NCBI GenBank assembly: GCA_965206315.1
Contig: OZ242210.1
Span: 2,641,619 to 2,705,618 of the forward strand
DNA: 64,000 bases
Reading direction: 5' to 3'
Source of the DNA: Dehalococcoidia bacterium
GTDB lineage: Bacteria > Chloroflexota > Dehalococcoidia > Lucifugimonadales > Australimonadaceae
Every line of letters starts with the position of its first letter. Within the stretch, counting starts at the first letter, position 1. Below, piece after piece: positions 3,551-50,475 of the stretch. The notes beneath the pieces are model-generated. The model saw nothing but the letters and a program-made list of their open reading frames with translations. It was not told where the DNA came from and searched no databases. The position numbers and the translations under genes are program-made.

Positions 3551-4705
3551 CTACGTGTCGCGCTCATTCGTGGGGCCGACCACGCCATTGCTGTACGGGA
3601 TGAACGCCTTCATCCGGGAGATGACGCCGTGCTTCGCAAGCTCGGCTTCGAAGATGCGGTTGATCTCCGGGTCTTGGTCCTCGTACTCGATCTGCATCCC
3701 GCCTTCCTTGATGCTGACGTTGGACTCGCCCCACTGGCTCGGTTGGCCGTCGCCGCTGCGGAGCGCGAGGTAGCGCGCGGGCTCAGGCCCCGTGTTGAAG
3801 TGCTGATGGTAAGTGGCATCGGAGGGGACGATGATCATGCCGCCCTTCTTCCAGGGCGCGATCTCGTACTCGGGGTTATCGTTATCCCACCAGAGCGCCG
3901 AGAACCCGACTCCGCCCAGGATGACCAGGTGCGCGCCCGGCCCGTGCCGGTGGCCCTTCTTGTACGTGCCCACCGGGAACTCGGAGATGTGCGCTCCGGT
4001 CACGTTCCCCGCGAGGTCGAAGTGCGTGTTGATGCCGCCCGCGCCGCGGTCGCGGTACTTCCACAGTTTCATGATGTCGGCGTTCGGCACGAAGTTCGTC
4101 TTCCACATCGTCCCGAACTTCGTCCCCTTCCGCTGGTAGAGCGTCCCCTGCCCGTTGAAGAAGTCCTCGTCCTCGCCGGAGAAGCGGTCCTTGAACCGGA
4201 ACGGGTTGTTGAAGACGAACTCGTTGCTGCGGAACATGCGCATCACGGGCGGCGCGTTCGTCATGGAGACGTACCGCGCGGGCTCCGTGCCGCTGCCGTT
4301 GAAGTGCTGGTACGACGCGTTCAGCGGGATGACCAGCAGGCTCCCCGCCGCCCACTCGAACGTCGCCTTCTGGCCCTCGCTCAGCCACACGCTCGTCGCG
4401 CCGCGGCCGGAGACGACGTACATCACCTCTTCGTACATGTGGCTCTCGGGCTCCGACTTGCCGCCAGGCTTGATCTCCACCAGGTGCGCGTCGTTCGGCA
4501 GCATCGGGTTCGGGATGTTGATCACCGCGCCCTTGCCGCCCTTCCGCTCCCAGTCGCCGAGCTCGACCTCGTTCAGGTCCTCAAACTTGTAATCGACGAT
4601 GCGCTTGACGCCCTCGCGCTCGATCCAGTCGAAGTACGGATCGCCCGCCTCCCACATATCCATCTTGTCGGGGACTTCTGCCTCTCGCAGGTCAACGACT
4701 GCCAT
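3551..4705 (-). CDS. bicupin protein (gentisate-dioxygenase-like fold); paralogue of 34396-35556
   Basis: 384-aa ORF with two cupin modules (HMYEEVMYVVSGRG ... and GHRHGPGAHLVILGG ...HQHFN). GGGAGGAG lies upstream of the ATG. It aligns along its full length with the 386-aa ORF at 34396-35556. Confidence 0.8.
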   Translation of the reverse strand: MAVVDLREAEVPDKMDMWEAGDPYFDWIEREGVKRIVDYKFEDLNEVELGDWERKGGKGAVINIPNPMLPNDAHLVEIKPGGKSEPESHMYEEVMYVVSGRGATSVWLSEGQKATFEWAAGSLLVIPLNASYQHFNGSGTEPARYVSMTNAPPVMRMFRSNEFVFNNPFRFKDRFSGEDEDFFNGQGTLYQRKGTKFGTMWKTNFVPNADIMKLWKYRDRGAGGINTHFDLAGNVTGAHISEFPVGTYKKGHRHGPGAHLVILGGVGFSALWWDNDNPEYEIAPWKKGGMIIVPSDATYHQHFNTGPEPARYLALRSGDGQPSQWGESNVSIKEGGMQIEYEDQDPEINRIFEAELAKHGVISRMKAFIPYSNGVVGPTNERDT

Positions 4706-4791: not shown

Positions 4792-5802
4792 TCATTCCCG
4801 CGAAGGCGGGAAGGTGGATTCACATTCGAAGTGCAACACCTGCTCTCGTAGCACCTCGGCCGGGGTCTGCCACTCGAGGCACTTGCGCGGCGTATTGTTA
4901 TACACCCTCAACAGCGCCGTGAACTCTCCCTCCGACAGTGAGGCCAGGTTCGTCTTGCGGGGTAAGAACCAGCGCATCCGTCCGATAGCGTTCTCCACGC
5001 CTCCCTTCTGCCACGGAGAATAGGTGTCGCAGAAGAACGTCTCGATGCCCCAGGCGTGGAGTTCGTAGTGGTGGGCGAACTCCGTGCCGTTGTCGAACGT
5101 GACCGTCTGGCGGAACTCCGGTGGCAGCGGTCCCAGGACGGCGGCGATGGCTTTGGCGACCGGTGCTGCTGCCCTCGAAGGTCGCCGCACCGCGATCAGC
5201 AGCCTTGAACGGCGCTCGTGCAGCATCAGCACCGTCTGCCCGGTCCTGCCGAACTGCATCCCATCCGCCTCCCAGTGCCCGAATGTCTGCCGGTCGGCAA
5301 CTGCTGCAGGGCGTTCCGAGAGCGGCCGGCGGTGCAGAATGGTGCGGGCCGAACTGCTCCCTCCGCGCTGGTGCCGACCGCGCCGCCACTTCCCCCGTCG
5401 CAAGAGCTTGCGCCACGAATAGTCCTTCGTCCGCGCTATCTGCGCGTAGATGAACCGGTAGATGCTCTCATGGGAGGTGACGCTCTTGCCGCGCTCCTTC
5501 TTCAACCGCCCCGCCACTGCCTCCGGCGACCAGCCCAGTTGCAACCCGCTCAGCACATCCCTGCGGAGCTCGTCGTCTCGGTCCAGCCGTGCGCCACTCC
5601 AGCGCCGTGCACGGGCCTGCTCGTGGGCATAGGTCGCCCGGTAGCCGCCGTCCTTCGTGCCGTTGCGCTTCAACTCCCGAGCAATCGTCGGTGGCGGGCG
5701 ATCCAGAGTTGCTGCGATTTCCCGGAGCGAGCGCCCCTCAGCACGTAGGCGGGCAATCGCACAGCGTTCCTCAATCCCAAGCTGCGTATAGCGGTTCCCC
5801 AT
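4792..5802 (-). CDS. IS30 family transposase
   Basis: 336-aa ORF with an N-terminal HTH (RSLREIAATLDRPPPTIARELKRN) and a DDE core (HWEAD ... TFDNGTEF ... PWQKGGVEN). The reading frame runs through the left IR and stops at the TGA of the flanking hairpin. Confidence 0.9.
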   Translation of the reverse strand: MGNRYTQLGIEERCAIARLRAEGRSLREIAATLDRPPPTIARELKRNGTKDGGYRATYAHEQARARRWSGARLDRDDELRRDVLSGLQLGWSPEAVAGRLKKERGKSVTSHESIYRFIYAQIARTKDYSWRKLLRRGKWRRGRHQRGGSSSARTILHRRPLSERPAAVADRQTFGHWEADGMQFGRTGQTVLMLHERRSRLLIAVRRPSRAAAPVAKAIAAVLGPLPPEFRQTVTFDNGTEFAHHYELHAWGIETFFCDTYSPWQKGGVENAIGRMRWFLPRKTNLASLSEGEFTALLRVYNNTPRKCLEWQTPAEVLREQVLHFECESTFPPSRE

Positions 5803-5844
5803 GGCAACACCTTAGTCTGGTGTTGCACTTCGTTTGTGAACTTA
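4813..5844 (-). mobile_element. IS30-family insertion sequence, copy 1 (about 1.03 kb), inserted in a family-A hairpin
   Basis: Imperfect terminal inverted repeats ttcacattcgaagtgcaacacc (4819-4840) and ggtgttgcacttcgtttgtgaa (5819-5840). The flanks gcgggaa | IS | gggaacccaggtgg rebuild a family-A unit. GGGAA is present on both sides. Confidence 0.85.
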
Positions 5845-6077
5845 GGGAACCCAGGTGGCCGCCAGGCTACGCGGCGCTGTGCGAACAAGAGGCACGCCTG
5901 GATGTCTTCCGGCTCGAGGAAGGTGTACTCCCGCAGGATGTCCTCTGCTGTATCTCCGGCCGCAAGCATCCCGAGAACGTGCTCCACCGCGATACGCATG
6001 TCGCGGATGATCGGTTTGCCGCCGAAGACATCCGCCCGCACCGTGATGCGTTCGAGTATCTCTTGTTCAGTAGGCAT
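5670..6077 (-). CDS. DUF433 domain protein whose 3' end is altered by the IS30 insertion
   Basis: ATG at 6077, 3 nt after the MFS stop. The product MPTEQEILERITVRADVFGGKPIIRDMRIAVEHVLGMLAAGDTAEDILREYTFLEPEDIQACLLFA is a typical DUF433. The frame then reads into the IS right IR (PKFTNEVQHQTK...) and stops only at 5670. Without the IS it would end ...PPGFPPSRE at the hairpin TGA. Confidence 0.6.
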   Translation of the reverse strand: MPTEQEILERITVRADVFGGKPIIRDMRIAVEHVLGMLAAGDTAEDILREYTFLEPEDIQACLLFAQRRVAWRPPGFPKFTNEVQHQTKVLPWGTAIRSLGLRNAVRLPAYVLRGARSGKSQQLWIARHRRLLGS

Positions 6078-6079
6078 GT

Positions 6080-7348
6080 CTACCCGTCCTCTCTCGTCTG
6101 CGACCCTGCACGAAGGTCCTGCAGACGGTGCACCTGGCCGCTCCGGAAGAGATAGCCAAGCGTGTACGCCAGCACTGCGACCCCACCCACGATCGCCGCG
6201 ACCGGCGCCGAAGCCAGCGCAGCAACGGCGGCGAACTGCAGCTCCCCCAGCGGACGGACGCTCGTGTGCACCATGCTCCATATCCCCATGACGCGTCCGC
6301 GGAACTCGTTCGCCACCAGCATCTGCAGGTTCGTCTGGACAGCCACGTTCACCATCGACGCTCCCGTGCCGTACGCGAACAGCAGCCCCAGCGATGCCCA
6401 GTACCACTCCGACAGCGCGAACGCTATCGAGAACACACCCATCGTCACCGCCCCGCTCGTGAACAGCGCACGCTGCTGGTTCGGCGCGGTCATGCTCGAC
6501 GCGATGAACACGCCGGTCACGCTCCCGATGCCCGTCGCCCCCCACATGTAGCCGAGCCCGTCCGGCCCGACGCCAAGCACGTCCTTCGCAAAGATGGGGT
6601 AGAGCACCGACAGCGCAACGCCGAACGCCATGTTCCAGTACGCCGTCCCGATGAGGAACAGGAATATCTTCTCGCGCCGGATGTAACCCAGCGCTGCCGC
6701 CATGTCTGCCAGCACGTTCCGCCCCTGCGACCGCACCACGGGTGGCAGGTGCACCCGCCACAGCAGCGCTGCGTACACCGCCACCGCCACCACCGTGATC
6801 GCGAAGACCACGCCGCCCGCCACGCTCGCGGACTCCGACGCGCTGAACACGAACTCGCTGACCAGCCCGCCCACGACCGGCGAGCCTACCCGTGTCGCCG
6901 GGTGGATCATCGCGTTCAGCCCCACGGCGCTCGGCATCGCCTCGCGCTGCACGAGGTGCGGGAACATCGCCTGTCGCGCAGGCCCCTCGAACGCGCCGAT
7001 GGCCGACAACGCGAAGCCTCCTGCTATCACGTGCCACGCGGTCAGCCCGCCCGCAAGTCCGATCACGGACAGCGCCCCCAGCACCACGATGAACAGCAGC
7101 TGCATGGCGATGAGCAGCTTCCGCTGGTCGAACTTGTCCGCGAGCGCCCCGCCAAACAGCGTGAGCGCAACGGAGGGGATCATCTGGGCGATGCCGTTCA
7201 CGCCCAGCAGCACCGCCGACCCGGAAAGCTGGTAGATCAGCCAGCCCTCGATCATCCACTGCATCTGCTGGCCGGATACGGCGATGACGAATCCCACCCA
7301 GTAGAGGCGGAAATCACGATGCCGCAGCGCGCTGAACCTCCCTGCCAT
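6080..7348 (-). CDS. MFS transporter
   Basis: 422-aa hydrophobic ORF with about 12 predicted TM segments and an MFS-like N terminus (FRLYWVGFVIAVSGQQMQWM). Confidence 0.85.
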   Translation of the reverse strand: MAGRFSALRHRDFRLYWVGFVIAVSGQQMQWMIEGWLIYQLSGSAVLLGVNGIAQMIPSVALTLFGGALADKFDQRKLLIAMQLLFIVVLGALSVIGLAGGLTAWHVIAGGFALSAIGAFEGPARQAMFPHLVQREAMPSAVGLNAMIHPATRVGSPVVGGLVSEFVFSASESASVAGGVVFAITVVAVAVYAALLWRVHLPPVVRSQGRNVLADMAAALGYIRREKIFLFLIGTAYWNMAFGVALSVLYPIFAKDVLGVGPDGLGYMWGATGIGSVTGVFIASSMTAPNQQRALFTSGAVTMGVFSIAFALSEWYWASLGLLFAYGTGASMVNVAVQTNLQMLVANEFRGRVMGIWSMVHTSVRPLGELQFAAVAALASAPVAAIVGGVAVLAYTLGYLFRSGQVHRLQDLRAGSQTREDG

Positions 7349-7389
7349 GCGGAGAGTCTACCCTGTCACAAACTCCGCCCGTCCTTCAT

Positions 7390-7468
7390 CGTCATTCCAG
7401 CGGAGGCTGGAATCCAGTGGAGCGGAGTAGCGCGCCATTCCGCTCATGGTGAGCCTGTCGAACCACCC
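7390..7468. repeat. interspersed repeats (A and F families)
   Basis: cgtcattccagcggaggctggaatccag at 7390-7417 and cgctcatggtgagcctgtcgaaccaccc at 7441-7468. The F family recurs at about 12387-12412. Confidence 0.85.
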
Positions 7469-7527
7469 ATCTCGTCCATCCTGTCCATCCCTGTTGATTC
7501 CTTCCCCGCGTGGGGTAACATCACCTT

Positions 7528-8556
7528 ATGCAGACACCTTTCGGCATCGTCGACGGCGACGGACACGTAACCGAGTCTGAGGACCAGATACGCCCCTACA
7601 TGGACGAGCCTTACCGCTCGCGGGGCGGCCAGATACGCGCGGGCCACAACTACTGGGACATCAACCTCGGCGGTCGGCTCGGCTCCGTCGCGAAGGACGC
7701 CCGGACCTGGCTCGACGCCATGGATGAAGGCGGCATGGAGACCGCCATCCTCTACCCCACCTCCATCGGCTTCACCGCCGCGCTCATCTGGGAGCCTGAC
7801 GTCGCGGTCGCCGTCTGCCGCGCCTACAACGACTTCCTCTACGAGGAGTTCACGACCGTCAGCCCGCGGCTCAAGAGCGTAGCGCTGCTCCCATTGCAGG
7901 ACGTCGACGAGGCCGTCAAGGAGCTGCGGCGCGCCGTCACCGAGCGCGGACACTCCGGCGCGATGCTCTCGGCCATCGGCGCGCACCCGCCCCTCGGGCG
8001 CGCACAGTACTTCCCGCTCTACGAGGAGGCGCAGCGCCTCGGCGTTATGCTCGCCGTCCACTCCTCCACCCAGGGCATCCACCACCTCGCCGCCGACGAC
8101 TACCAGCGCTTCATCGAGGTCAACACCTTCTGCTTCCCGGTCGGCCTCTTCCGCCACATGGTCAGCATGATGTTCGCCGGCATCCCTGAGCTCTTCCCCG
8201 ACCTGCGCGTCGGCTGGATGGAGGCCGGCTGCGGCTGGGTGCCCTACTGGCTGGAGCGCATGGACGAGAAGTGGAAGATACGCGGCGCCGACGAGGCCCC
8301 CATGCTCCGCAAATCACCCACCGAGTACGTGCAGCAGGGCAACTGGTACTTCCACTCCGAGGCCGACGAGAAGATGCTCCCCTACACCGCCTCCGTCATC
8401 GGCAAGGACAAGCTCTTCTTCGCATCGGACTTCCCCCACTGGGACTCCGAGTACCCCCACAATGTGCAGGAGATGCTCGCCCGCGAGGACATCGACGAGA
8501 GGCTCCGCCGCAACGTCCTCCGCGAGAACGCCCTCCGCCTCTACGGGATGGCGTAG
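7528..8556 (+). CDS. amidohydrolase-2 family (ACMSD-like TIM-barrel metal hydrolase/decarboxylase)
   Basis: 342-aa ORF with an N-terminal IVDGDGHV metal motif and C-terminal FASDFPHWD. It is one of four paralogues in the window. Confidence 0.85.
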   Translation: MQTPFGIVDGDGHVTESEDQIRPYMDEPYRSRGGQIRAGHNYWDINLGGRLGSVAKDARTWLDAMDEGGMETAILYPTSIGFTAALIWEPDVAVAVCRAYNDFLYEEFTTVSPRLKSVALLPLQDVDEAVKELRRAVTERGHSGAMLSAIGAHPPLGRAQYFPLYEEAQRLGVMLAVHSSTQGIHHLAADDYQRFIEVNTFCFPVGLFRHMVSMMFAGIPELFPDLRVGWMEAGCGWVPYWLERMDEKWKIRGADEAPMLRKSPTEYVQQGNWYFHSEADEKMLPYTASVIGKDKLFFASDFPHWDSEYPHNVQEMLAREDIDERLRRNVLRENALRLYGMA

Positions 8557-8575
8557 CTTCCGGGAGCCTTGTCTT

Positions 8576-8598
8576 CGTCATTCCCGCGAAAGCGGGAA
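8576..8598. repeat. left half of a family-A hairpin (left inverted repeat of GIY-YIG unit 1), interrupted by IS30 copy 2
   Basis: cgtcattcccgcgaaagcgggaa is followed directly by the IS end ggtgaattcaca. The rest of the unit (tctcg) resumes at 9633. Confidence 0.8.
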
Positions 8599-9627
8599 GG
8601 TGAATTCACATTCGAAGTGCAACACCTAGTCTAGGACCTCGGCCGGGGTCCGGTAGCCGAGGCACTTGCGCGGCGTATTGTTGTAGGCCTGCACGAGCTC
8701 TGCAAACTGCTCGTCCGTCACAGTGACGAGGTCAGTCTTCCGTGGCAGCATCCGGCGCATCCTACCGATCGCATTCTCTACACCTCCCTTCTGCCACGGG
8801 GCGTGGGTGTCACAGAAGAAGGTCTCCATCCCAAGCGCGTGCAACTCGTGATGCCGCGCGAACTCCGTCCCGTTGTCGAACGTCACCGTTCGGCGCAGTT
8901 GCGGCGGGAACCTTCCCAATGCCCCCGACATCACACGGGCAATCGGCCCCGAGGCCTTTCCCGGAGGACGCACCGCAATCAGCAGCCGCGAATGCCGCTC
9001 ATGCAGCGTCAACACAGCCTGGCCGTAGGTACTGAACAGCATCAGGTCCGCCTCCCAGTGCCCAGGCTCTCGCCGGTCTGCTGCCGATGCAGGCCGCTCC
9101 GAGAGCGGTCGACGCAGACGGATGAACGAGGCCGGACTGCCTCCCCCGCGCCCGCGCCGGCCCCGCTTCGACTTCCCTCGCGGCAGGTAGTGGCGCCACG
9201 TGTAGTCCTTCGTCCGTCTGATCTGCCCGTAGATGAACCGGTAGATGCTCTCGTGGGAGATGATGCGTCTGCCTTTCACCAGGGCGAGTCGGTTCACGAC
9301 TTCCTCCGGCGACCACCCTCTCCCAAGGGCGGCAAGCACCTCTGCGCGCAGAGGACCATCACGCTCCAGCCGTGCTCCGCTCCAACGACGGGCTCGCGCC
9401 TGCTGTTCTGCATACCGTGGCTGATAGCCATCCCTCCTCGATCTGTTGCGCTTCAGTTCCCGAGCAACCGTCGATGGCGCGCGATCCAGAGCTGCAGCGA
9501 TTTGCCGGACCGAGTGTCCCTCGGCTTGTAAGCGGGCAATCGCACACCGCTCTTCAATGGAGACCTGCTGATAGTGCTTTCCCATGGCAACACCCTAATG
9601 AGGTGTTGCACTTCGTTTGTGAACTTA
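8599..9627 (-). mobile_element. IS30-family insertion sequence, copy 2 (about 1.03 kb), inserted in a family-A hairpin
   Basis: IRs ttcacattcgaagtgcaacacc (8605-8626) and ggtgttgcacttcgtttgtgaa (9602-9623) are the same as in copy 1. GGGAA is on both flanks (8594-8598 and 9628-9632). Confidence 0.85.
8626..9585 (-). CDS. IS30 family transposase (diverged paralogue of 4792-5802)
   Basis: 319-aa ORF collinear with copy 1. It is clearly related but diverged (roughly two-thirds identical by eye) and carries the same HTH and DDE motifs. Confidence 0.9.
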   Translation of the reverse strand: MGKHYQQVSIEERCAIARLQAEGHSVRQIAAALDRAPSTVARELKRNRSRRDGYQPRYAEQQARARRWSGARLERDGPLRAEVLAALGRGWSPEEVVNRLALVKGRRIISHESIYRFIYGQIRRTKDYTWRHYLPRGKSKRGRRGRGGGSPASFIRLRRPLSERPASAADRREPGHWEADLMLFSTYGQAVLTLHERHSRLLIAVRPPGKASGPIARVMSGALGRFPPQLRRTVTFDNGTEFARHHELHALGMETFFCDTHAPWQKGGVENAIGRMRRMLPRKTDLVTVTDEQFAELVQAYNNTPRKCLGYRTPAEVLD

Positions 9628-9662
9628 GGGAATCTCGTATCCCTTACCCCTATACTCAACGC

Positions 9663-14178: not shown

Positions 14179-15888
14179 TCACCCTGCTTCGTTGCCATAC
14201 GGCGGACGCATCGTGTGCCAGGGCGTCGCCTGCTCGTAGGCGTGCGCGATTCGGAAGATCGACGTCTCGTCGAAGCGCTTCGCCATTACGTGCAGCCCTA
14301 TCGGCAGACCGTCGTCGGAGAAGCCCATCGGCACCGACATCGCCGGCGCGCCGGAGTAGTTCGCGGGCGTGTGGAAGCCGTACTTCCGCATCTGCTCCAC
14401 CGCCGCCTCCTTCGTCGGAGGCTCGCTCTTCGTGTCAGCGATGCGCGGCGGGAACTGCGCGTACGCCGGGGCCACCGTCACGTCAAAGCGCTCCAGTATC
14501 CCGAGCGCCTGCGCCCGCAACCGGCCCCGCAGCTGCAGCGCCCGCTGGTATGTCGCCGCAGGGACGAGCGCCGAGATGAGCGTGTTCCGCCGCACCCCCG
14601 CGTCGTACAGCTCCGGCGTCGCGTTCAGATGCGTCCACTGCAGCGCCACGCGCGGCGAGTGCAGCGCGTTGTTGATGAGCGCCGTCATCGTCATCAGCGA
14701 CATTGACACCTCCTCGACCTCCGCGCCGAGCGACCGCAGCACGCCCACGGCGTCGAGCGTCAGCTGGCGGATGCGCGGGTCCAGGTGCGGCGCATCTATC
14801 GCCTCCTTGATGACCGCGACCCGCATCCCGCGGATATCGCCGTCGAGCCATGAGGAATATTGGGGCACCGGCAGCCGCGCCGACATCAGGTCGTTCGCGT
14901 CGAACCCGGCGACCGCCTCCAGCAGCAGCGCACAGTCCGCGACCGACCGCGCGATGGGCCCCGCCGTGTCCTGGTTCCAGCTGCTCGCGATCATCCCGTG
15001 CGTGCTCACCCGCCCGAGCGTCGGGCGTATCCCCACGGCCCCGTTGCACGACGCCGGACGCCGTATCGACCCGCCCGTATCCTCGGCCAGCGACCCCGCG
15101 CAGAGGCCCGCCGCGACCGCGATACCGGAGCCGGTGCTCGACCCGCCCGCGTCGTGCTCCAGGTTCCACGGGTTGCGCGGCTGGCCGTACGGGAACACCC
15201 ATGTCACCGGCGCAGCGAACTCCGTCATGTTCAGCTTGCCCAGCATCACCGCGCCCGCTTCGTGGAACCGCGCGATGGGCGTCGCGTCGAAGTCCGGCAC
15301 GAACTCCGAGAGGATGCTCGAGCCGCACGTCGTCAGGATGTCCTTCGTGTAGAACTCGTCCTTATGCGCGAGCGGGATGCCCGCCAGCGGTCCCACAGCC
15401 TCACCCCGTGCCAGCGCCTCGTCCGCTTTCGCCGCCTGCTCCAGCGCGAGCTCCGCCGTCACCGTCACGTATGAGCGCAATTCGCCGTCGAACCGCTCGA
15501 CGCGGTCGAGGTACATCCGCGTCAGCTCCACCGACGACACCTGTCGCGTCCGCAGCAGGTGCGCCAGTTCCGTGATCGGCTTGTACGCCATCGGGTGATC
15601 GGAGCTTTCCGTCAGCTTAGGTCCCGTCCGCCCTGAACCTGCTCTCTCCACCTCGCCCTCTGGGAGAGGTCGCCGCGCAGCGGCGGGTGAGGGTGACTCC
15701 GGCGCCTCTGCCGGGTACTGCAACGCAGGCAGCGGTTCGACCCCGTACAGGTCGTGCTCGTCGAGCACTTCCAACCCTTCGCGCAACGCGTTGAACTGCA
15801 CCGTCAGCGGCTCGACGTCCTCGTCCAGCAGCCGCAGCCCCGCTACCTTCGCCAGCTCTCGAAACTCATCCGGCGTGATGTCTGCCAT
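14179..15888 (-). CDS. amidase-signature enzyme fused in frame to an N-terminal GatC-like module
   Basis: One uninterrupted 569-codon ORF. A strong RBS (AAGGAG) lies 7 nt before ATG 15888. Residues 1 to about 58 (ITPDEFRELAKVAGLRLLDEDVEPLTVQFNALREGLEVLDEHDLYGVEP) look like GatC/AtzG. The amidase core starts near MAYKPITEL (ATG 15591) with GGSSTGSG and the Ser-cisSer-Lys context. The linker includes a 45-bp family-B repeat (15651-15695). Confidence 0.85.
   Translation of the reverse strand: MADITPDEFRELAKVAGLRLLDEDVEPLTVQFNALREGLEVLDEHDLYGVEPLPALQYPAEAPESPSPAAARRPLPEGEVERAGSGRTGPKLTESSDHPMAYKPITELAHLLRTRQVSSVELTRMYLDRVERFDGELRSYVTVTAELALEQAAKADEALARGEAVGPLAGIPLAHKDEFYTKDILTTCGSSILSEFVPDFDATPIARFHEAGAVMLGKLNMTEFAAPVTWVFPYGQPRNPWNLEHDAGGSSTGSGIAVAAGLCAGSLAEDTGGSIRRPASCNGAVGIRPTLGRVSTHGMIASSWNQDTAGPIARSVADCALLLEAVAGFDANDLMSARLPVPQYSSWLDGDIRGMRVAVIKEAIDAPHLDPRIRQLTLDAVGVLRSLGAEVEEVSMSLMTMTALINNALHSPRVALQWTHLNATPELYDAGVRRNTLISALVPAATYQRALQLRGRLRAQALGILERFDVTVAPAYAQFPPRIADTKSEPPTKEAAVEQMRKYGFHTPANYSGAPAMSVPMGFSDDGLPIGLHVMAKRFDETSIFRIAHAYEQATPWHTMRPPYGNEAG
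15651..15695. repeat. family-B-like repeat embedded in frame in the GatC-like/amidase ORF
   Basis: cctcgccctctgggagaggtcgccgcgcagcggcgggtgagggtg is 45 bp (15 codons). It matches intergenic B-type units such as 24881-24910 and 44601-44640. Confidence 0.8.
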
Positions 15889-20112: not shown

Positions 20113-21216
20113 TTAGAACCCGTAGAAGCGGCTGGCGTTGCCTGCCAGCACGGCGCGCTTCTGGTCGTCGGTGAGCGCGGCGCTCTCTACGGTCTCGCGT
20201 ATCTCGTGCTGTGCGCCGGGCAGGTCGACCTCGTGCGGGTAGTCGGACGAGTAGGCGAACGGCTCGATGCCGACCCGCGAGGCGAGGTACGGCAGGCTCA
20301 CGTCGTTCCCCTCGCAGCCGATGAGGACGTTCCCGCTCGTGACGTACTCGTCAAAGGGACGCTTCGCCACCCTGCCGAAGAACTCGTCGTCGCGCACCGC
20401 GCGGTCGAGCACCGGCACGAGCCAGCCTGCCCCGCCTTCCAGGAACGCGAGCTTGAGGCCGGGGAACCGGTCGAGCACGCCGTGGTAGACCAGCCCCACG
20501 AGCGCGTACATGAGCGGGACGGGGTGATGCAGGATGTGCGAGCCGACGAAGTCGGTGAACGAGTCCAGCCCCAGGCCGTGATGCGACGCCCCGTGCAGCG
20601 CGAGCACGCAGCCGAGGTCCGCCGCCTCCTCGTAGACCGGCCACCAGAACTCGTGGGCGAGGTGCAGCGGCAGACCGGCAGCGGGGAGCATCGCGCCCGG
20701 CATCCCGAGGTCGCGCACGACGCGGCGCAGCTCCTCGACGGCGAGCGCCGGGCTGACCATCGGGATGAGCCCCATGGGGTGGATGCGCTCGTCCGCTCCA
20801 CGGTAGCGGTCGTGGACGTAGTCGTTGTAGACGCGGCAGAGGCGGTCGGCGTACTCGGGCGTGCGGATCATGCCGACGGCGAGCCCGCGCGTGGGGAAGA
20901 TGACCGTCCGCTCGATGCCGGTCTTGTCGAGCAGGGCCGACCAGTCCCCGGCGGAGCCGGTGCGCTCCTCGCTGGCCATCGTGCGCGGCCAGCTGAACCG
21001 CCCTCCCCAGCCCCTGGCGTAGTTGTGGATGCCGTCCAGCGAGGGGAACGGCCCGTCCTGTGTGATCATCCGCCCGGCGGTCGCCACCTTGACCATCTTG
21101 CTCGTGAGCGGCGCCCGGAGGGAGTCGTCGGCGTACTCGCCGAGCTCCTCGTTCGACTCCATGAGGTGGCCGTCGCAGTCGATCACTCGATAGGGCTGGT
21201 CGTTCATGGGGCACAT
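20113..21216 (-). CDS. amidohydrolase-2 family protein
   Basis: 367-aa ORF with VIDCDGHL and YSSDYPHE motifs. Confidence 0.85.
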   Translation of the reverse strand: MCPMNDQPYRVIDCDGHLMESNEELGEYADDSLRAPLTSKMVKVATAGRMITQDGPFPSLDGIHNYARGWGGRFSWPRTMASEERTGSAGDWSALLDKTGIERTVIFPTRGLAVGMIRTPEYADRLCRVYNDYVHDRYRGADERIHPMGLIPMVSPALAVEELRRVVRDLGMPGAMLPAAGLPLHLAHEFWWPVYEEAADLGCVLALHGASHHGLGLDSFTDFVGSHILHHPVPLMYALVGLVYHGVLDRFPGLKLAFLEGGAGWLVPVLDRAVRDDEFFGRVAKRPFDEYVTSGNVLIGCEGNDVSLPYLASRVGIEPFAYSSDYPHEVDLPGAQHEIRETVESAALTDDQKRAVLAGNASRFYGF

Positions 21217-21329
21217 GATAACCCCTCACCCCCGGCCCCTCTCCCAGAGGGCGAGGGGAGATAGGAATGGTGGTAGTTGTAGCCCCCGCCCGCATCCTGA
21301 TATACGCTGATGCGAACGGAGGACGCCCG

Positions 21330-21632
21330 ATGACGACGACCAACGCGCTGGACGACCGCTTCGACGAGGCCGAGCGGGGCCTGGAATGGCTGGAGAAGCT
21401 GGAGGCGCTGCAGGCGCGCTCCGCATCCGACCGCGCCGCCTACGAGGTCGCGGAGTACGTGATGCAGCTCCGCGCAGCCGTGACCGCCCTTGCCGGAGAG
21501 CGCACCGCTTCCGAACTCGCCGGGGCAGTCGGGCCGGAGACGGCGGAACTCGTCGAGGAGCTGCGCCAGGCCGGCGGCAAGGACTACTGGAACACGCGCG
21601 TCCTCCCCGCCCTGCTGAAGTCGGACCGCTGA
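21330..21632 (+). CDS. hypothetical helical protein
   Basis: ATG 21330 is preceded by GGAGGA at 6 nt; the track ORF starts earlier, inside a repeat. I recognise no family. Confidence 0.4.
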   Translation: MTTTNALDDRFDEAERGLEWLEKLEALQARSASDRAAYEVAEYVMQLRAAVTALAGERTASELAGAVGPETAELVEELRQAGGKDYWNTRVLPALLKSDR

Positions 21633-21639
21633 GGGGACA

Positions 21640-21790
21640 ACCCTCACCCCCAGCCCCTCTCCCAGGGGGCGAGGGGAGTTTGTCATTTCGAGCGCAGCCG
21701 AGGAATCTCTCAGGTGACGTCTCGCCCTCACTCACGTTCTCCCGAGAGGATGTTGCGCGCTGAAGCGCGGGACTCCGCCTGCGGCTCCGC
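21640..21790. repeat. intergenic repeat cluster (B-like, D, B-like)
   Basis: The cluster contains ccctcacccccagcccctctcccagggggcgaggggag, tttgtcatttcgagcgcagccgaggaatctctcagg and gttgcgcgctgaagcgcgggac. Confidence 0.85.
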
Positions 21791-21805
21791 TCAACATGAC
21801 AATCA

Positions 21806-23578
21806 TCACCACACCCCCAGCCGGTTCCGCGACGCGCTGTCGTCCTCGTCATCATCCTGGTCCAGAGGCGGCGGCTCCGCGTACGGCGGCGGGAGGTCAT
21901 AGCCGTAGGCCTCGATGTGCGGCCTCGGCGGGGGGTCGCGCAGGAAGGGCTCGGCGCCCGTCCAGATGCCGAACGACGGCGGAACGAGGAACGCGAGCGC
22001 GAGTGCGTCGGCCTTGTCCGGCGAGGGCATGCCGCGTTTGCGCATCTCCGGCTTGCCTTCCAGCCGGATCTGCCCCGAACTCGAGATGTCGTAGCGCAGC
22101 CCGAGCAGTTGACCGGCCAGCTCCTCGTCGCGCGGGATGGCGATCAGCCGGCGCTCCAGCAGCCTGCGCAACTCCCAGAAGATCTCCGATCGGCGGTTGA
22201 AGAAGCGCATCGGACGCTTGGCCGCGCCGCCGAAGTGGACGCCGTAGACCGGCGATCCAAGCTCACGAAGGCGGTCGACGACGCCCCCGCCGACGCCGCC
22301 CTCGTCGACGAAGATCGCCTCCGCGTTCCACTCCCGCACCGCGCGACGCACTTCGAACACGAGGCGCATCGTGTCCATGCGCTCGAACGAGCGCACCGAC
22401 AGCACACGCTGTCCCTGCCGCACGCAGATGGCCGACTTGTCGAAGCCGTACCGCGCCACGTCGACGCCGATGTAGACGGGCTCGTTGGGGTCGAAGAAGC
22501 CCTCACCCGCACTTCCAGTGCACCCTCTCCCGGGGGAGAGGTGACTATCGTCATTCCCGCCCTCACCGTCATTCCCGCGCAGGCGGGAATCTCGCAGCCC
22601 AGGGGAGGTAGGGGGCGAGGTTCCTGCCTCCGCAGGAACGACGGGTCCATCCCCACTCCCCGCCGGTACACCCTCACCCGCCGCACTGTCGTGCGCCGAC
22701 CTCTCCCCGAGGGAGAGGTGTGTTTGACTCCCCTCGCCCGCGGATGGTTGGCCTGTTTGGCCCCCCTCGCCTTGGACGGTGGACGTCTCCCACCGCTCCA
22801 TGGCGGACTCCACCGCCTCGCGGCCTACGAGCGAGTCGTCGAGTGCGTCGGGGAACCGGGCGAGGACGGACGCGGCGTAGAGCGGGTGGTCCTCGCCGTA
22901 GTCGAGCGCGTACTCCTCGGCGTACTCGGGCGTGATCATGCCGCGCCTGCCGCCGCCCTCGCCGGTGAAGTTGGGCGTGTCGAACGCGGAGATGGCGATG
23001 CGGTGGTAGAAGTTCCGCTTCGCGTGGTGCGAGGCGTAGAACTCGCCGTCGCGCGAGAGCGCGTTGCCGACCAGCAGGAGGCGCTCCGGCTGCAGCCGCT
23101 TGATGGCGTCGACGTGCGCCTGCGGCATGGCGTGCGCCTCGGTGACGACAACGAGCAGCTCCGCCGCGTGGAAGCCCTGGATGTTGAGCGCGTTGTTGGT
23201 CGAGAAGCCGAGCGCGAACCGCTGCTCGTCGATGCGGTACGCGTTCGTGAGCATCCGCCCGCTGAGCACGTCCGCGGCAGCCGCGTACGCCTCGCGCATC
23301 TCCCGCCACACGATCTCCTCGACCTGCCGCTGCGTCGGGCCGAGGGTGAGGGCCTTGCTCTCCGGGCGCGTCTCCAGCCACCAGAGCACGGCGCGGCCGG
23401 CAACCCAGTCCTTGCCGGAGCCGTTCGCCCCGACGACGCTGACGCGCCGGTTGTCGACGAGCGCTTCGAGCATCTCGGCCTGCTTCGAGTACGGCGTTCC
23501 GGTGCCGCCGAGCACGTCGGTCACGAACCCGACGGGGTCGTTCGCGTAGTGTGTAAAGTCCTCTGCCACGGCTACCAC
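21806..23578 (-). CDS. phage terminase large subunit (TerL)-like protein carrying an in-frame repeat-derived insert between the ATPase and nuclease domains
   Basis: Walker A-like VVGANGSGKDW and Walker B-like LLVVVTEAH. The RNaseH-like nuclease half shows YIGVDVARYGFDKSA, IFVDEGGVGGGVVDRL and SPDKADALALAF. GTG starts are possible at 23578 or 23569. About 95 codons (about 22500-22775) are built from A/B-type repeats. Confidence 0.8.
   Translation of the reverse strand: MVAVAEDFTHYANDPVGFVTDVLGGTGTPYSKQAEMLEALVDNRRVSVVGANGSGKDWVAGRAVLWWLETRPESKALTLGPTQRQVEEIVWREMREAYAAAADVLSGRMLTNAYRIDEQRFALGFSTNNALNIQGFHAAELLVVVTEAHAMPQAHVDAIKRLQPERLLLVGNALSRDGEFYASHHAKRNFYHRIAISAFDTPNFTGEGGGRRGMITPEYAEEYALDYGEDHPLYAASVLARFPDALDDSLVGREAVESAMERWETSTVQGEGGQTGQPSAGEGSQTHLSLGERSAHDSAAGEGVPAGSGDGPVVPAEAGTSPPTSPGLRDSRLRGNDGEGGNDDSHLSPGRGCTGSAGEGFFDPNEPVYIGVDVARYGFDKSAICVRQGQRVLSVRSFERMDTMRLVFEVRRAVREWNAEAIFVDEGGVGGGVVDRLRELGSPVYGVHFGGAAKRPMRFFNRRSEIFWELRRLLERRLIAIPRDEELAGQLLGLRYDISSSGQIRLEGKPEMRKRGMPSPDKADALALAFLVPPSFGIWTGAEPFLRDPPPRPHIEAYGYDLPPPYAEPPPLDQDDDEDDSASRNRLGVW
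22500..22775. repeat. block of at least four interspersed repeat units lying inside the TerL ORF
   Basis: The block contains cctcacccgcacttccagtgcaccctctcccgggggagaggtg, cgtcattcccgccctcaccgtcattcccgcgcaggcgggaatctcgc, gcgaggttcctgcctccgcaggaacgacggg and caccctcacccgccgcactgtcgtgcgccgacctctccccgagggagaggtg. The boundaries are approximate. Confidence 0.8.
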
Positions 23579-23938: not shown

Positions 23939-24361
23939 CTACTCTCTCACCAACTCGATGCGGTCTGCATAGCGGCGGAAGTCGGTGGTGTTGAACGTCA
24001 GCAGCCGACGCTCGCCGTGCGCCAGCATGGTCGCTACGATGTTGGCGTCGTGGACCTGCCGCCCTCCCATGGGGAATGCTCGGCAGAGTTCGAGCAGCGA
24101 CGCGGTCACCAGTGGGCCGTCTTCGAGCACATCGAAATCGGCTATCAACCGCTCGACATCGTCGACCGCTTCCTCTCGCGTGATGGCGCCAGGCCACGCC
24201 TGGGGCCGGGTGACCACAGAGAGATACTCACGCAGCACCTGACGGCTGATCCGCAGGGGTTCGGCGTTCTCCAAGGCACGCTCCAGCCGGCTCCTAGCGG
24301 CGTCGCAGTGTGGCGATTCGGAGAAGCGGGCGTAAACGAACACGTTGGTGTCTACGAACAT
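23939..24361 (-). CDS. vapC: PIN-domain toxin (VapC-like)
   Basis: MFVDTNVFVY... ...VHDANIVATMLAHG...LLTFNTTDF carries the PIN acidic residues. Confidence 0.85.
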   Translation of the reverse strand: MFVDTNVFVYARFSESPHCDAARSRLERALENAEPLRISRQVLREYLSVVTRPQAWPGAITREEAVDDVERLIADFDVLEDGPLVTASLLELCRAFPMGGRQVHDANIVATMLAHGERRLLTFNTTDFRRYADRIELVRE

Positions 24362-24368
24362 CGGGGGG

Positions 24369-24776
24369 TTAGACCCTGTCCTCGTACATGTCCTCCCGCC
24401 GGAGACTCAGGCCTTCAGGCCACCGCGCTGTGGGATGGACCGGCCATATCTCGTCAAGGCTGAGTCTGCGACCCGGCTCCGATCGCTCACGCTTCCTGAG
24501 CAGCAGGGTCTCGGCGTCCATGTTGACGTTCGCGGTTTCCCAGCCCGCCAGGGTCCACGCGAGCGATTGACTGTGGCCGTTGCCGTTGCTCTGGTTGCCC
24601 CACCAGGGGCGGTGCAGGCGTGCCGAGGCAGGCAGATCAAATCCCAACACCGACTCGATCTCACCGAAGGAAGTATTCCACTCCTGGGCAGAAAGGCTGC
24701 AGAGGTGCGCATACAGCTTTCGGTATTTGCCGCGTGCGGCCATCTCCCTGTATCGCTGTTCGCGAGCTATCGTCAT
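24369..24776 (-). CDS. candidate antitoxin: unrecognised N-terminal domain fused to a VapB-like C-terminal tail
   Basis: 135-aa ORF with a GGAGGGAGG RBS, ending 7 nt before the PIN start. The C-terminal LSLDEIWPVHPTARWPEGLSLRREDMYEDRV resembles PIN-binding antitoxin tails. The N-terminal half (KYRKLYAHLCSL...FGEIESVLGFDLPASARLHRPWWGN) is a separate module. Confidence 0.6.
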   Translation of the reverse strand: MTIAREQRYREMAARGKYRKLYAHLCSLSAQEWNTSFGEIESVLGFDLPASARLHRPWWGNQSNGNGHSQSLAWTLAGWETANVNMDAETLLLRKRERSEPGRRLSLDEIWPVHPTARWPEGLSLRREDMYEDRV

Positions 24777-24855
24777 CCGGACCTCCCTCCTCGCTCCAAT
24801 GCTACCCGTTTACCATATTAGTTAGTTAGTGTATCCGGCGCAAGGGCAATGCGGT

Positions 24856-25020
24856 TCACCCTCACCCGCTGCGCTACCGCGCCCCGACCTCTCCCAGAGG
24901 GCGAGGTGATCAGGTGGGCACCCACAAGGGGTGCCCCTACACCAGGCACCCCTCACCTATCTCGCCCCACCCCCGTGCCCTACGGGTACTCTGGATTCCC
25001 GCCTTCGCGAGAATGACGGA
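24856..25020. repeat. repeat cluster (B, C, A families); the composite recurs at 28061-28250
   Basis: The cluster contains caccctcacccgctgcgctaccgcgccccgacctctcccagagggcgaggtg, gggcacccacaaggggtgcccctaca and ctctggattcccgccttcgcgagaatgacgg. Confidence 0.9.
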
Positions 25021-25369
25021 GAGGGGGTTGGAAGAGGGGGCGGCGGGCGGGGCAGCGGCAGGTCTTGCCGAGGTTCAGGAGGTCGCCCTCGGCCCAGGCG
25101 TGGACAATGGCCAGGACGATGCGGGCAGGATCGGGGGTACGTCCGGTCTTCGCGCACTGGCGGAGGTAGGCGTCGACGGGGACGGGACTGAGGACGGGGA
25201 CGCTCACGGCTCCCGCGGCCTCAAAGAGGTCCGCGAGGTCGGGCGGGTACTCGCCGCGCTCGACGGCTTCGGCCCAGCGGTCGACGTAGTCGTCGGCGAT
25301 GGGTCTGAGCCTGGCCTGCGCCGCGAGGCAGCCGAGGTAGCGTTCCATGGCCCTGACGCTGCTTCTCAT
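24980..25369 (-). CDS. hypothetical protein, translationally coupled to the upstream HTH gene
   Basis: ATG 25369 overlaps the stop of the upstream gene (ATGA). The C terminus reads into the repeat cluster. I recognise no family. Confidence 0.4.
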   Translation of the reverse strand: MRSSVRAMERYLGCLAAQARLRPIADDYVDRWAEAVERGEYPPDLADLFEAAGAVSVPVLSPVPVDAYLRQCAKTGRTPDPARIVLAIVHAWAEGDLLNLGKTCRCPARRPLFQPPLRHSREGGNPEYP

Positions 25370-25767
25370 CGCTGCTGCCTTATGAGGGTGATGGCGTTCT
25401 CCAGCGTGTCCATCCGGCGTCGCGTTTCTCGCTGGTCGCGGACGCTCATCGACATGGAAAGGGCGGTCTTCGACGCGCGATGGGCCACGTTGGGGTTGTC
25501 GCTGTCCATCAATTGCTCGATGCGGACGGCTCCCTTGAGGGCGAGTCCCTCCAACTGGGAGAAGGCGAAGTCCGCGATGTTGTTGCGGATACGCTCCAGC
25601 TCGTCACGGAAGGCGGGCTCGTTCATCCAGCGCGTGAGGGTGCGCCTCGTGATCTGTGCGGCCTGCGCTCCACGCGTGATGGTGGGCTCGGACGCGACGT
25701 ACGGAAGGGCGGCAGCCTGCCGCGGCGAAAGGGCAATCGTTCTCTCAGGTGAGACATTGTGAGACAT
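25366..25767 (-). CDS. HTH protein, possible terminase small subunit
   Basis: The 133-aa product starts MSHNVSPERT, with GGAGGAGG 11 nt upstream. An N-terminal HTH-like segment (ITRGAQAAQITRRTLTRWMNEPAFRDEL) is followed by a helical tail. It lies upstream of TerL on the same strand. The track ORF (to 26010) is over-extended. Confidence 0.45.
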   Translation of the reverse strand: MSHNVSPERTIALSPRQAAALPYVASEPTITRGAQAAQITRRTLTRWMNEPAFRDELERIRNNIADFAFSQLEGLALKGAVRIEQLMDSDNPNVAHRASKTALSMSMSVRDQRETRRRMDTLENAITLIRQQR

Positions 25768-34395: not shown

Positions 34396-35556
34396 CTACG
34401 TGTCGCGGGCGGAGGTGGGGCCGACCTCGCCCTTGCAGTAGGAGATGAACGCCTTCATGCGGCAGGTCACCTCGTTCCGGTCCAGCTCCGCCTCGTAGAT
34501 ATCGTGGATCTTCGGGTCCTCGTCCTCGTATTCGATCTGGTAGCCGCCTTCCTTGAAGCTCTGGTCGGCGCCCTGCCCGCGCGGGATGGCGGCGCGGAGG
34601 CCGTGCGTGCCCGGCGTCAGTGCCATGTAGCGCGCCCGCCGCGTGCCGGAGTTGAAGTGCTGGTGGTACGTCCCGTCGCTCGGCACGATGACGAGCGAGC
34701 CGACCTTCCAGTCGGCCTTGCGGATGTCGGACATGTCGTCCTTCGTCCACAGGAGGGAGAAGCCGGCGTCGCCGCTGAGGAGGACGAGGTTCGCGCCCGG
34801 TCCGTGCCGGTGCGCCTTCTTGTAGGTGCCGACGGGGAACTCGGAGATGTGGGCCTTGGAGAGGTTGCCGGCCATCTCGAACATGGAGTTGATGCCGCCG
34901 GCGCCGCGCTCGTTCCATGCGTAGAGGGCCATGTCCGGGGCGTTCGGCATGAAATTGGACGCCCAGACGCGCCGGTTATAGAGCTTGCCGTTGCCGCTGA
35001 AGAAGTCGTCTTCGCCGCTGTACCGGCTGCTGAACGGGTAGTCGCACTGGAAGATGAAGTCGTTGTCGCTGAAGAGCCGCATGTTCGCCGGGGCGGTCGT
35101 CACCGCGAGGTATCGCGCGGGCTCGGTGCCGCTGCCGTTGAAGTGCTGGTACCAGCAGTTCAGTGGGATGGAGAAGAGGCTGCCCTTCTTCCACTCGAAC
35201 GTCTTCTTCTCCTCGCTGCCCTGCGGCCAGATGCTGGTCGCGCCGCGCCCGGAGACGATGTAGACGTACTCCTCGTAGACGTGGTGCTCGGGCTCCGAAC
35301 TGCCGCCGGGGTCGATCTCGACGATATGGGTGTCGTTGGTGAGGACATGGTAGGGGATGTTGATGACGGCGCCCTTCCCTCCCTTGCGCTCCCACGGGCC
35401 GAGCTCGACGTTCGCGATGTCGTCGAAGGCGTAGTCGACGATGACCTTCACGCCCTCGGCCTTCAGCCAGTCGGCGTAGGGGTCGGGTATCGCGAAGTCC
35501 TCCAGCCCTTCGGGTGTCGGCGCGTACTTGATGGCCGCATCGGCGTCGGTGGTCAT
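34396..35556 (-). CDS. bicupin protein, paralogue of 3551-4705
   Basis: 386-aa ORF collinear with 3551-4705 (HHVYEEYVYIVSGRG, AHRHGPGANLVLLSG, YHQHFNSG). Confidence 0.8.
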   Translation of the reverse strand: MTTDADAAIKYAPTPEGLEDFAIPDPYADWLKAEGVKVIVDYAFDDIANVELGPWERKGGKGAVINIPYHVLTNDTHIVEIDPGGSSEPEHHVYEEYVYIVSGRGATSIWPQGSEEKKTFEWKKGSLFSIPLNCWYQHFNGSGTEPARYLAVTTAPANMRLFSDNDFIFQCDYPFSSRYSGEDDFFSGNGKLYNRRVWASNFMPNAPDMALYAWNERGAGGINSMFEMAGNLSKAHISEFPVGTYKKAHRHGPGANLVLLSGDAGFSLLWTKDDMSDIRKADWKVGSLVIVPSDGTYHQHFNSGTRRARYMALTPGTHGLRAAIPRGQGADQSFKEGGYQIEYEDEDPKIHDIYEAELDRNEVTCRMKAFISYCKGEVGPTSARDT

Positions 35557-44419: not shown

Positions 44420-44786
44420 CCGGACGCCCTCACCCGCCCAAGCGCGTCGATCTCTCCCCGAGGGCGAGATGGGGAGCATACAGGGCACCCACGAGCGACG
44501 CCCCTACACCAGACGGGGTTCCTGCCTTCGCAGGAACGACGGAGTTGTGCTCCGTCCGGAATGACACGCCGCGCCGCCGCCCTGCCGCAGGGCCCTCACC
44601 CGCCGCGCAAGCGCGTCGACCTCTCCCCGAGGGAGAGGTGAGGAGACACGGCCCCGAGAGATTCCTCGACTGCACCACCGGCTAGGTCGACGGCTCCGCC
44701 CGGAATGACAATCCGCCCCACCTCTCACTGACCCCGCCGCGTGACCTGCCCGGTCACTCTGGATTCCCGCCAGTGCGGGAATGACG
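44420..44786. repeat. large intergenic repeat cluster (B, C, A', B, D-like, A-long inverted)
   Basis: The cluster contains ccctcacccgcccaagcgcgtcgatctctccccgagggcgagatgggg, gggcacccacgagcgacgcccctaca, ggttcctgccttcgcaggaacgacgg, ccctcacccgccgcgcaagcgcgtcgacctctccccgagggagaggtgagg and gcgtgacctgcccggtcactctggattcccgccagtgcgggaatgacgg. Confidence 0.9.
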
Positions 44787-50389: not shown

Positions 50390-50475
50390 GGCCCTCACCC
50401 GCGCATCAAAGATGCGCACCCTCTCCCTCAGGAGAGGGGATTGGCTGCGAGGTTCCTGCCTCCGCAGGAACGACG
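50390..50475. repeat. intergenic repeats (B inverted, A')
   Basis: The repeats are gccctcacccgcgcatcaaagatgcgcaccctctccctcaggagagggg and gcgaggttcctgcctccgcaggaacgacg. Confidence 0.9.

Follow-up and report, generated by a model that had tools for sequence, protein, structure and literature searches.

Repetitive extragenic palindromic elements (REPs) are imperfect palindromes of 20–40 bp with a terminal CGTC or GTAG, and are grouped into GTAG- and CGTC-tagged superfamilies, the GTAG type having been reported in Chloroflexi (Di Nocera et al., 2013; PMC3733652). The same source describes REPs within genes, where dimers or clusters encode 20–30 amino acids and at most 43–82; different REPs at about one recB site in two Xanthomonas species; sequences of the Rickettsia palindromic elements (RPEs) of R. 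conorii that end in CGTC; and the lack of an obvious dedicated transposase for CGTC REPs. RPEs are known as in-frame insertions into protein genes (Ogata et al., 2000, summarized in the MITE review PMC10969869). Here, we analyzed a 64,000-nucleotide stretch of the Dehalococcoidia contig OZ242210.1 (the window) that contains a gene for a large terminase subunit (TerL) with such repeats at the junction of its two domains. We consider it very probable that REP-type elements inserted and rearranged in a permissive hinge of this gene, and that purifying selection then acted on the reading frame, and probably on composition, leaving a disordered, hypervariable tether.

The repeats resemble the intragenic REPs of PMC3733652: they are short hairpins tagged with CGTC or GTAG, high in copy number, mostly intergenic, often arranged as inverted dimers and sometimes in frame within genes. 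Unlike the reported cases, the window insert spans 98 amino acids (162 in locus L019 and ~240 in protein P0112), and one site is filled in ~50 orthologues and paralogues, in 42 architectures that mix REPs with other stem-loop families; the lineage that hosts them (Dehalococcoidia/SAR202) is new, as is the host gene. The likeness to RPEs is one of behavior only, in that selfish palindromic DNA sits in frame and adds peptide at fold-compatible positions. RPEs are discrete units of ~100–150 bp that encode a conserved peptide and occur once per gene in many unrelated genes, whereas the window gene carries a mosaic of several short repeats at one hinge. In-frame insertion of REPs and RPEs into genes is thus already described, and what is new here is the scale, the recurrent occupancy of one site, the host gene and the lineage.

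As a terminase, the protein compares with Sf6 gp2 and the TerLs of D6E and HK97 in having an ATPase domain, an RNase-H-like nuclease domain, a hinge between them and a small-terminase (TerS)-like gene upstream. It differs from them in being encoded by an orphan chromosomal gene with 3–5 paralogues and no adjacent portal gene, and in a hinge that is 10- to 50-fold longer; phage TerLs also carry GK[S/T] and DE where this protein has GKD and TE, and lack its proline- and acid-rich C-terminal tail ending in NRLGVW.

The terminase gene and its insert

The original prediction of a single uninterrupted terminase reading frame at 21806–23578, with a repeat block of about 95 codons at ~22500–22775, was borne out and refined: comparison with short-linker relatives set the insert at amino acids 265–362 (22493–22786), 98 codons that are in frame and free of stops. 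The true start is probably the GTG at 23569, as homologues begin MAED. The gene and its parts are as follows (pLDDT is the per-residue confidence of an AlphaFold2 (AF2) model; GC3 is the GC fraction at third codon positions).

21806–23578, minus strand: TerL-like open reading frame (ORF), 590 amino acids, stop codon at 21806–21808
22793–23578, minus strand: ATPase domain, amino acids 1–262; AF2 strands and helices, pLDDT mostly 75–93; GC3 0.83–1.0
23407–23427: Walker A, GANGSGKD, amino acids 50–57
23137–23157: Walker B, LLVVVTE, amino acids 141–147
22493–22786, minus strand: repeat-derived linker insert, amino acids 265–362, 98 codons, 294 nt; boundaries set by short-linker relatives
21983–22486, minus strand: RNase-H-like nuclease domain, amino acids 365–532; pLDDT 82–95; D373, D425/E426, D521/D524
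21809–21982, minus strand: disordered C-terminal tail, amino acids 533–590, proline- and acid-rich, ending NRLGVW; pLDDT <50, and by alignment

Profile and structure comparisons indicate that this is a gene of the large-terminase family, with a predicted ASCE-type ATPase joined to an RNase-H-like nuclease. The PHROGs profile phrog_2 'terminase large subunit' matched amino acids 23–535 (E=8e-35). An AF2 model built with 89 homologues as input has the two-domain TerL fold, with two confident domains (pLDDT mostly 80–95); amino acids 273–359 of the insert and 533–590 of the tail have pLDDT <50 and no secondary structure. Foldseek comparison of this model with full-length TerLs returned Sf6 gp2 (E=1e-18) as well as D6E, T4 gp17 and HK97 TerL, and its nuclease domain superimposed on those of the E217, Sf6 and G20c TerLs with TM scores of 0.65–0.73 and root-mean-square deviations (rmsd) of 2.4–3.0. 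When the ATPase domain by itself was searched against PDB sequences, only chance matches came back, which do not settle the Walker B alignment; a profile search gave weak matches only, confined to the nuclease domain. NCBIfam returned nothing relevant for the protein and PADLOC no match, so it is no known defense protein or member of a named family there.

The Walker-like and RNaseH-like motifs proposed at the outset are both present and are invariant across the 89 homologues: G50, G55, K56 and D57 (Walker A), T146 and E147 (Walker B), and the acidic catalytic residues of a TerL nuclease, D373, D425/E426 and D521/D524. They are among at least 130 invariant alignment columns. The orphan TerL clade has an additional C-terminal tail of ~55 amino acids with a conserved NRLGVW end, which is absent from portal-linked relatives; these finish at IWT (for example, L072).

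Between the two domains, 78% of insert residues are Gly, Ser, Glu, Pro, Ala, Thr, Asp or Gln. In a window of 66.6% GC, the GC3 of the gene is 0.83–1.0 (0.9–1.0 in the flanks of the insert) but falls to 0.53–0.73 across residues ~271–360. The insert is composed of the following repeats.

22567–22594, plus strand: CGTC-tagged REP hairpin, unit A, CGTCATTCCCGCGCAGGCGGGAATCTCG (CGTCATTCCCGCGCAGGCGGGAAT), translated DSRLRGND; family D4, 13 copies in the window
22614–22646, minus strand: the other CGTC-tagged REP hairpin (unit A'), coding-strand sequence CGTCGTTCCTGCGGAGGCAGGAAC, translated VVPAEAGTS; inverted pair I24
22656–22738: B-type stem-loop repeat (CCCTCACCC ... CCTCTCCC-n3-GGGAGAGG), translated HLSLGERSAHDSAAGEG; matches at 24852–24908, 15649–15695 and 44617–44640
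22499–22545: weaker B-like unit (CCCTCACCC..GCACTTCCAGTGC..CCTCTCCCGGGGGAGAGG), translated HLSPGRGCTGSAGEG; read from the sequence, with one external BLAST match

Units A and A' are mutually inverted and form a REP dimer, with a partial copy of unit A beside the full one at 22549–22566. Imperfect palindromes of REP length and tag are found at 22567 and, on the opposite strand, ending at 22646; both units begin with CGTC, which is followed by the hairpin CGTCATTCCCGC-GCAG-GCGGGAAT in one and by CGTCGTTCCTGC-GGAG-GCAGGAAC, read on the opposite strand, in the second. The copy number and inverted pairing expected of REPs are also seen, as the window holds 24 such hairpins (families D3, D4, D13 and D19), 21 of them outside called coding sequences; of the three inside called genes, TerL holds two, and the third lies in an N-terminus that is probably over-extended. 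Comparing 22480–22800 with the rest of the window by BLAST recovered 17 copies of 22547–22600, eight of 22614–22646 (unit A' recurs with 100% identity at 50447–50475) and three of 22664–22720, in agreement with the earlier proposal that the insert is encoded by repeat units; the intergenic DNA of the window is filled with the same palindromic repeats. Against the flanks of 80 related loci, the depth of matches reached 86 over 22547–22646, 14 over 22656–22738 and one over 22499–22531. No recognizable repeat was found in 22739–22786.

RNA of the insert, taken from the coding strand, folds far more strongly than shuffled sequences (z=-4.55, vs +0.42 for an ATPase-domain control of the same length). 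A scan for terminators and promoters found nothing terminator-like on the coding strand within the insert, and an Rfam scan of the whole window at gathering thresholds returned zero families, indicating that the repeats are not a curated RNA.

Repeats also occur within other genes of the window. An amidase gene (14179–15888, minus strand) contains a 16-amino-acid in-frame B-type repeat (..SPSPAAARRPLPEGEVER../..ESPSPAAARRPLPEGEVER..) at ~15640–15695, where a short N-terminal segment gives way to the amidase domain; the otherwise near-identical orthologue at L001 lacks this repeat. Hinges and linkers appear from such sequences to be intragenic sites where these repeats survive, and not in TerL alone. 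Long arrays of GC-rich repeats with periods of 12 nt and 18–30 nt lie at 42429–42745, 57450–57610 and 59060–59256, the first complementary to the other two (inverted pairs I2–I7); on opposite strands, these probably encode Thr/Pro/Ala-rich low-complexity linkers of large secreted proteins.

Turnover and reading frame of the linker

We measured the linker at each related locus as the DNA between two anchors, residue 262 (..AVESAMER) and residue 365 (NEPVYIGVDVAR). It is 9–24 nt long in 64 of 66 relatives from IMG/VR (median 15) and 9–27 nt in chromosomal relatives with a portal gene immediately downstream. The 51 other chromosomal relatives, from metagenome-assembled genomes (MAGs) of Dehalococcoidia, have linkers of 36–486 nt. 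The longest insert among the loci read is the 162 amino acids of L019, and the length of P0112 (748 amino acids) implies ~240 extra residues. An assembly artefact was ruled out, as like architectures occur in many independent assemblies, complete chromosomes included.

Clustering of the 51 inserts at 80% identity and 80% length gave 42 groups, which we treat as distinct architectures. Matches to sequence in these loci that lies outside TerL genes cover a median of 79% of insert nucleotides, vs 0% for ATPase- and nuclease-domain controls of the same length. The same peptides recur in varied order and number (VVPAEAGTS, EVPASAGTT, GLRDSRLRGNDD, HLSPGERSARDSAAGEG, PSPPAPLPEGEGS, DCHSERSAAEPRNLSG...DERSPRDVSxSLNMT and GAHEGRPYT), and relatives' linkers hold GTAG-tagged REP units as well. 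Among the window gene, L001 and L003, the ATPase domains are 96% identical and the insert architectures unrelated; the L001 insert includes a composite unit in tandem duplication. Short linkers also occur within the insert-bearing clade (L002, L052, L053, L045 and L050), with seven residues in L002, L052 and L053 and only a 12-residue remnant in L045. At L056, an IS110-type transposase gene (7343–8338; phrog_2199, E=5.5e-56) lies inside the repeat-filled linker and splits TerL into N- and C-terminal ORFs, a position consistent with the targeting of REP-like hairpins by IS110 elements.

The reading frame is preserved through this turnover. Of the 51 inserts, 49 are multiples of three and free of stops (binomial P=2e-21), as are 40 of the 42 distinct architectures (P=3e-17), while the alternative forward frames are open in just 24 of 102 cases. 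Across the family, these counts indicate that the frame is kept by selection and not by chance. For the window insert taken alone, the probability of 98 open codons at its composition is ~0.10, multiplied by 1/3 for frame, and the caution first voiced about chance in a single gene was reasonable.

The same counts bear on whether TerL is made as two separate polypeptides, with the repeat block serving as an effective intergenic spacer. Both halves do remain open at L051 and L054, which are frame-shifted within the insert, and at the insertion sequence (IS)-split L056. However, a spacer would face no pressure to stay free of stops or to keep a length divisible by three, and in the window the two halves are joined with no stop codon between them. 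Because 49 of 51 inserts are in frame and open, a split into two separately translated genes is disfavored, and we regard it as extremely improbable.

We propose instead that an ancestral interdomain hinge of 3–8 residues was invaded by the host's own small palindromic repeats, normally intergenic (CGTC REPs, in relatives also GTAG REPs, and other stem-loops). As a solvent-exposed tether joining two independently folding domains, the hinge would let insertions survive provided that they keep the frame and bring no stop, and these would be translated as a disordered linker rich in Gly, Ser, Pro, Ala and Glu. Once seated, a repeat cluster would draw further insertions, duplications, deletions and even IS elements, and selection would purge the variants that break the frame. 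The linker would turn over much faster than the flanking codons because such clusters keep attracting these events, which may proceed by REP mobilization, replication slippage or recombination.

Selection on the gene and competing explanations

The window TerL has more than 1,500 homologues, the nearest of which are 60–85% identical over the whole protein and come from Dehalococcoidia/SAR202 MAGs, several of them sponge metagenome bins. Nei-Gojobori dN/dS between the window gene and nine orthologues was 0.10–0.24 in the ATPase domain and 0.14–0.25 in the nuclease domain, values that are if anything too high because extreme GC3 bias compresses dS; other groups of TerL paralogues gave comparable values. 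Codon comparisons thus indicate an intact gene under purifying selection in both domains, and not a relic, and the protein is presumably made and active. Together with the intact motifs, the disordered insert between folded domains in the model and the preservation of frame across the family, this supports the idea, put forward in the original prediction, of an insertion tolerated in the flexible linker of a functional gene. Neither of the observations that would have told against it was made: no single fixed linker free of repeats is common to the orthologues, the catalytic residues are not mutated, and dN/dS is far below 1.

A number of observations nevertheless weigh against this interpretation. 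Firstly, Pfam scores were below threshold (Terminase_6N, 14.7 bits against a cut-off of 22; Terminase_6C, 13.6 bits against 22.6). Secondly, the canonical Walker motifs (GxxxxGK[S/T] and hhhhDE) are not found: the protein has GKD and TE, and the Walker B aspartate is called strictly conserved in the terminase literature (PMC5737356). Thirdly, we found no portal, protease or major capsid protein (MCP) homologue in the 64-kb window, which leaves a packaging role for this copy putative. Fourthly, frame-shifted loci (L051, L054 and L074) may mean that some copies are decaying. Finally, the REPs within inserts are read in a biased set of frames, a hint that the peptide is selected, or that the copies share ancestry, and that tolerance alone is not at work.

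Some of these points would suit a relic kept open by chance in high-GC DNA, the alternative allowed by the original prediction and here taken as a decayed prophage terminase: the gene stands apart from portal and capsid genes, its Pfam scores are sub-threshold, and one 98-codon insert would be in frame and open by chance in ~3% of cases. A relic would not, however, be expected to show dN/dS of 0.10–0.25 in both domains, invariance of every catalytic residue, 49 of 51 inserts in frame, synteny of the locus between genomes, or a flank GC3 of 0.9–1.0, a maintained codon bias. On the strength of the low dN/dS and the family-wide preservation of frame, we reject this explanation as highly improbable.

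The Walker variant also looks like something other than decay. The Walker A lysine and the catalytic glutamate are retained, with aspartate in place of Ser/Thr in Walker A and threonine in place of aspartate in Walker B. The GKD+TE pair is more likely a subfamily variant because it is invariant in the family, portal-adjacent members included, and is seen in three IMG/VR contigs. Among IMG/VR relatives, 74 have K[S/T]+DE, three KD+DE and three KD+TE (the viral loci that bear on these variants are L085–L087, L120, L124 and L131). This distribution looks like the relocation of a metal ligand, and suggests that the magnesium-ligand aspartate may have moved stepwise from Walker B to Walker A.

The frame bias bears on a further alternative, that the variable linker is itself selected, as a segment that tunes ATPase-nuclease coupling, as a docking or phase-separating segment, or through RNA hairpins that pause ribosomes to aid folding; paralogues with differing linkers would then be functionally specialized. 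The inserts hold 40 CGTC-REP hairpins, of which 31 are read in the Ala/Pro/Gly/Thr-rich frame (V(V)PAEAGT or EVPASAGTT), nine in the Asp/Arg/Gly/Asn frame (RHSRxGGNP or DSRLRGND) and none in the Phe/Arg-rich SFPRRRE-type frame, although these counts are not phylogenetically independent and purging of harmful peptides alone could give the bias. The strong structure of the insert RNA, and the presence of 3–5 paralogues per genome with a different linker in each, would likewise fit a selected linker. On the other hand, near-identical orthologues differ wholly in linker content, short-linker members remain in the same clade, and the linker of the unrelated amidase holds the same repeats. We therefore consider selection for the linker itself unlikely, and retain tolerated insertion with selection on the frame as the preferred account.

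Neighboring genes and dispersed head genes

The TerL gene lies among the following genes and repeats.

20113–21216: amidohydrolase
21267–21632: convergent gene, 100–121 amino acids
~21638–21805: B-type and CHSERS-type repeats touching the TerL stop codon
23603–23648: REP of unit A type between genes, 25 nt before the TerL start; together with the repeats at ~21638–21805, families D4/D13 and pairs I17, I18 and I21
23939–24361: PIN toxin
24369–24776: DUF7662 gene
24980–25369, minus strand: conserved Cys-containing gene, 129 amino acids, function unassigned; overlaps the TerS-like gene by 4 nt
25366–25767, minus strand: small-terminase-like gene, 133 amino acids; phrog_2538 terminase small subunit, E=3e-8

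The TerS-like gene and the 129-amino-acid gene, which has no Pfam or PHROG match, are an operonic pair conserved upstream of this TerL subfamily: a TerS-like homologue lies within ~6 kb of TerL in 24 related loci, and the 129-amino-acid gene adjoins it in 15. In the window, the pair is separated from TerL by the DUF7662-PIN genes (23939–24776) and repeat clusters. Amidohydro_2 genes near 35 of the loci were considered as a possible linkage and are attributed instead to expansion of that family. Elsewhere in the window, diverged duplicates of 72–76% identity (4849–5849 vs 8632–9632, and 4160–4643 vs 34999–35485) correspond to paralogous pairs of metabolic genes.

The window TerL is not next to portal or capsid genes, and no portal, protease or MCP gene lies beside any insert-bearing relative. 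Related genomes carry 3–5 diverged TerL paralogues (five in OY764542.1 and four in OZ242348.1), each among metabolic genes in conserved synteny (the window with L001, and L002 with L081). A phage satellite or phage-inducible chromosomal island (PICI) was rejected, as TerL loci keep their synteny with metabolic genes from one genome to another, no integrase was found among their called neighbors, and PADLOC gave no match. Thus, of the original suggestion of a domesticated or satellite-type packaging ATPase, the domesticated half stands, given this synteny in different genomes, and the satellite half fits less well.

Short-linker relatives in other Dehalococcoidia belong to TerL-portal or TerL-portal-protease-MCP modules (portal PF04860, E=8e-72). 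Short-linker TerL-portal pairs also lie between rpoB/rpoC and an IMPDH-like gene at L068 and L072 (in L072, TerL at 5947–7305 and portal at 7371–8681) and at purQ/purL in L080; within 6 kb of these three pairs, we found no capsid genes. In OZ220673.1, which carries the closest orthologue of the window gene (L003), an S78 protease gene, an 82-amino-acid gene and an HK97-type MCP gene form a mini-cluster amid housekeeping genes, and the cluster is syntenic in a second contig (L165, 8869–11326; L166, 2074–4420); L166 contains no TerL. Another genome with a lone TerL has a lone intact portal gene, also amid housekeeping genes (L083, 10001–11182). The dN/dS of these protease, MCP and portal genes is 0.11–0.17. 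The best 120 matches of the portal profile search included only one lone-TerL genome (the contig of 2,911,394 bp), from which the absence of portals elsewhere is not inferable.

Our best guess, and the simplest interpretation, is that the orphan TerL belongs to a dispersed, domesticated, HK97-like set of head and packaging genes. More broadly, and tentatively, sponge-associated and marine SAR202 Dehalococcoidia may keep a dispersed, vertically inherited HK97-like head set (TerS-TerL, protease-MCP and portal; a gene transfer agent (GTA)-like or other domesticated capsid system) in which TerL has expanded to 3–5 paralogues with a hinge that tolerates from ~5 to ~240 disordered residues; the balance of probability is at present against so full a model. 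Such a set would resemble GTAs such as RcGTA and other domesticated phage head sets in that its head and packaging genes pass down vertically, evolve under purifying selection and lie dispersed between housekeeping genes. Unlike GTAs, it has multiple TerL paralogues, which a GTA-like model leaves unexplained; the window contains none of the capsid genes, the loci examined yielded no tail, lysis or regulatory gene, and the set is not known to form a particle. Literature searches on SAR202 with terminase, and on orphan or domesticated terminases, found nothing relevant. We consider the dispersed head genes a more novel lead than the repeat phenomenon.

The TerL hinge offers a clean and well-replicated case in which selfish palindromic DNA has come to write protein sequence: one hinge has been colonized dozens of times and selection visibly filters the frame, and probably the peptide composition. 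Interdomain hinges emerge as sinks for REP-type elements; therefore, such mosaics are to be expected when repeat-rich, high-GC genomes are annotated or their protein domains predicted. For terminases, a conserved TerL with a hinge 10–50 times the phage length argues that the ATPase and nuclease of this subfamily need no short, rigid connection. If these TerLs are active, they would form a natural linker-length series that could inform how far terminase motors need tight mechanical coupling. Finally, the orphan TerL paralogues, together with protease-MCP and portal genes that are scattered yet under purifying selection, point to a domesticated phage-head system, as yet undescribed, in an abundant lineage of marine bacteria and sponge symbionts.

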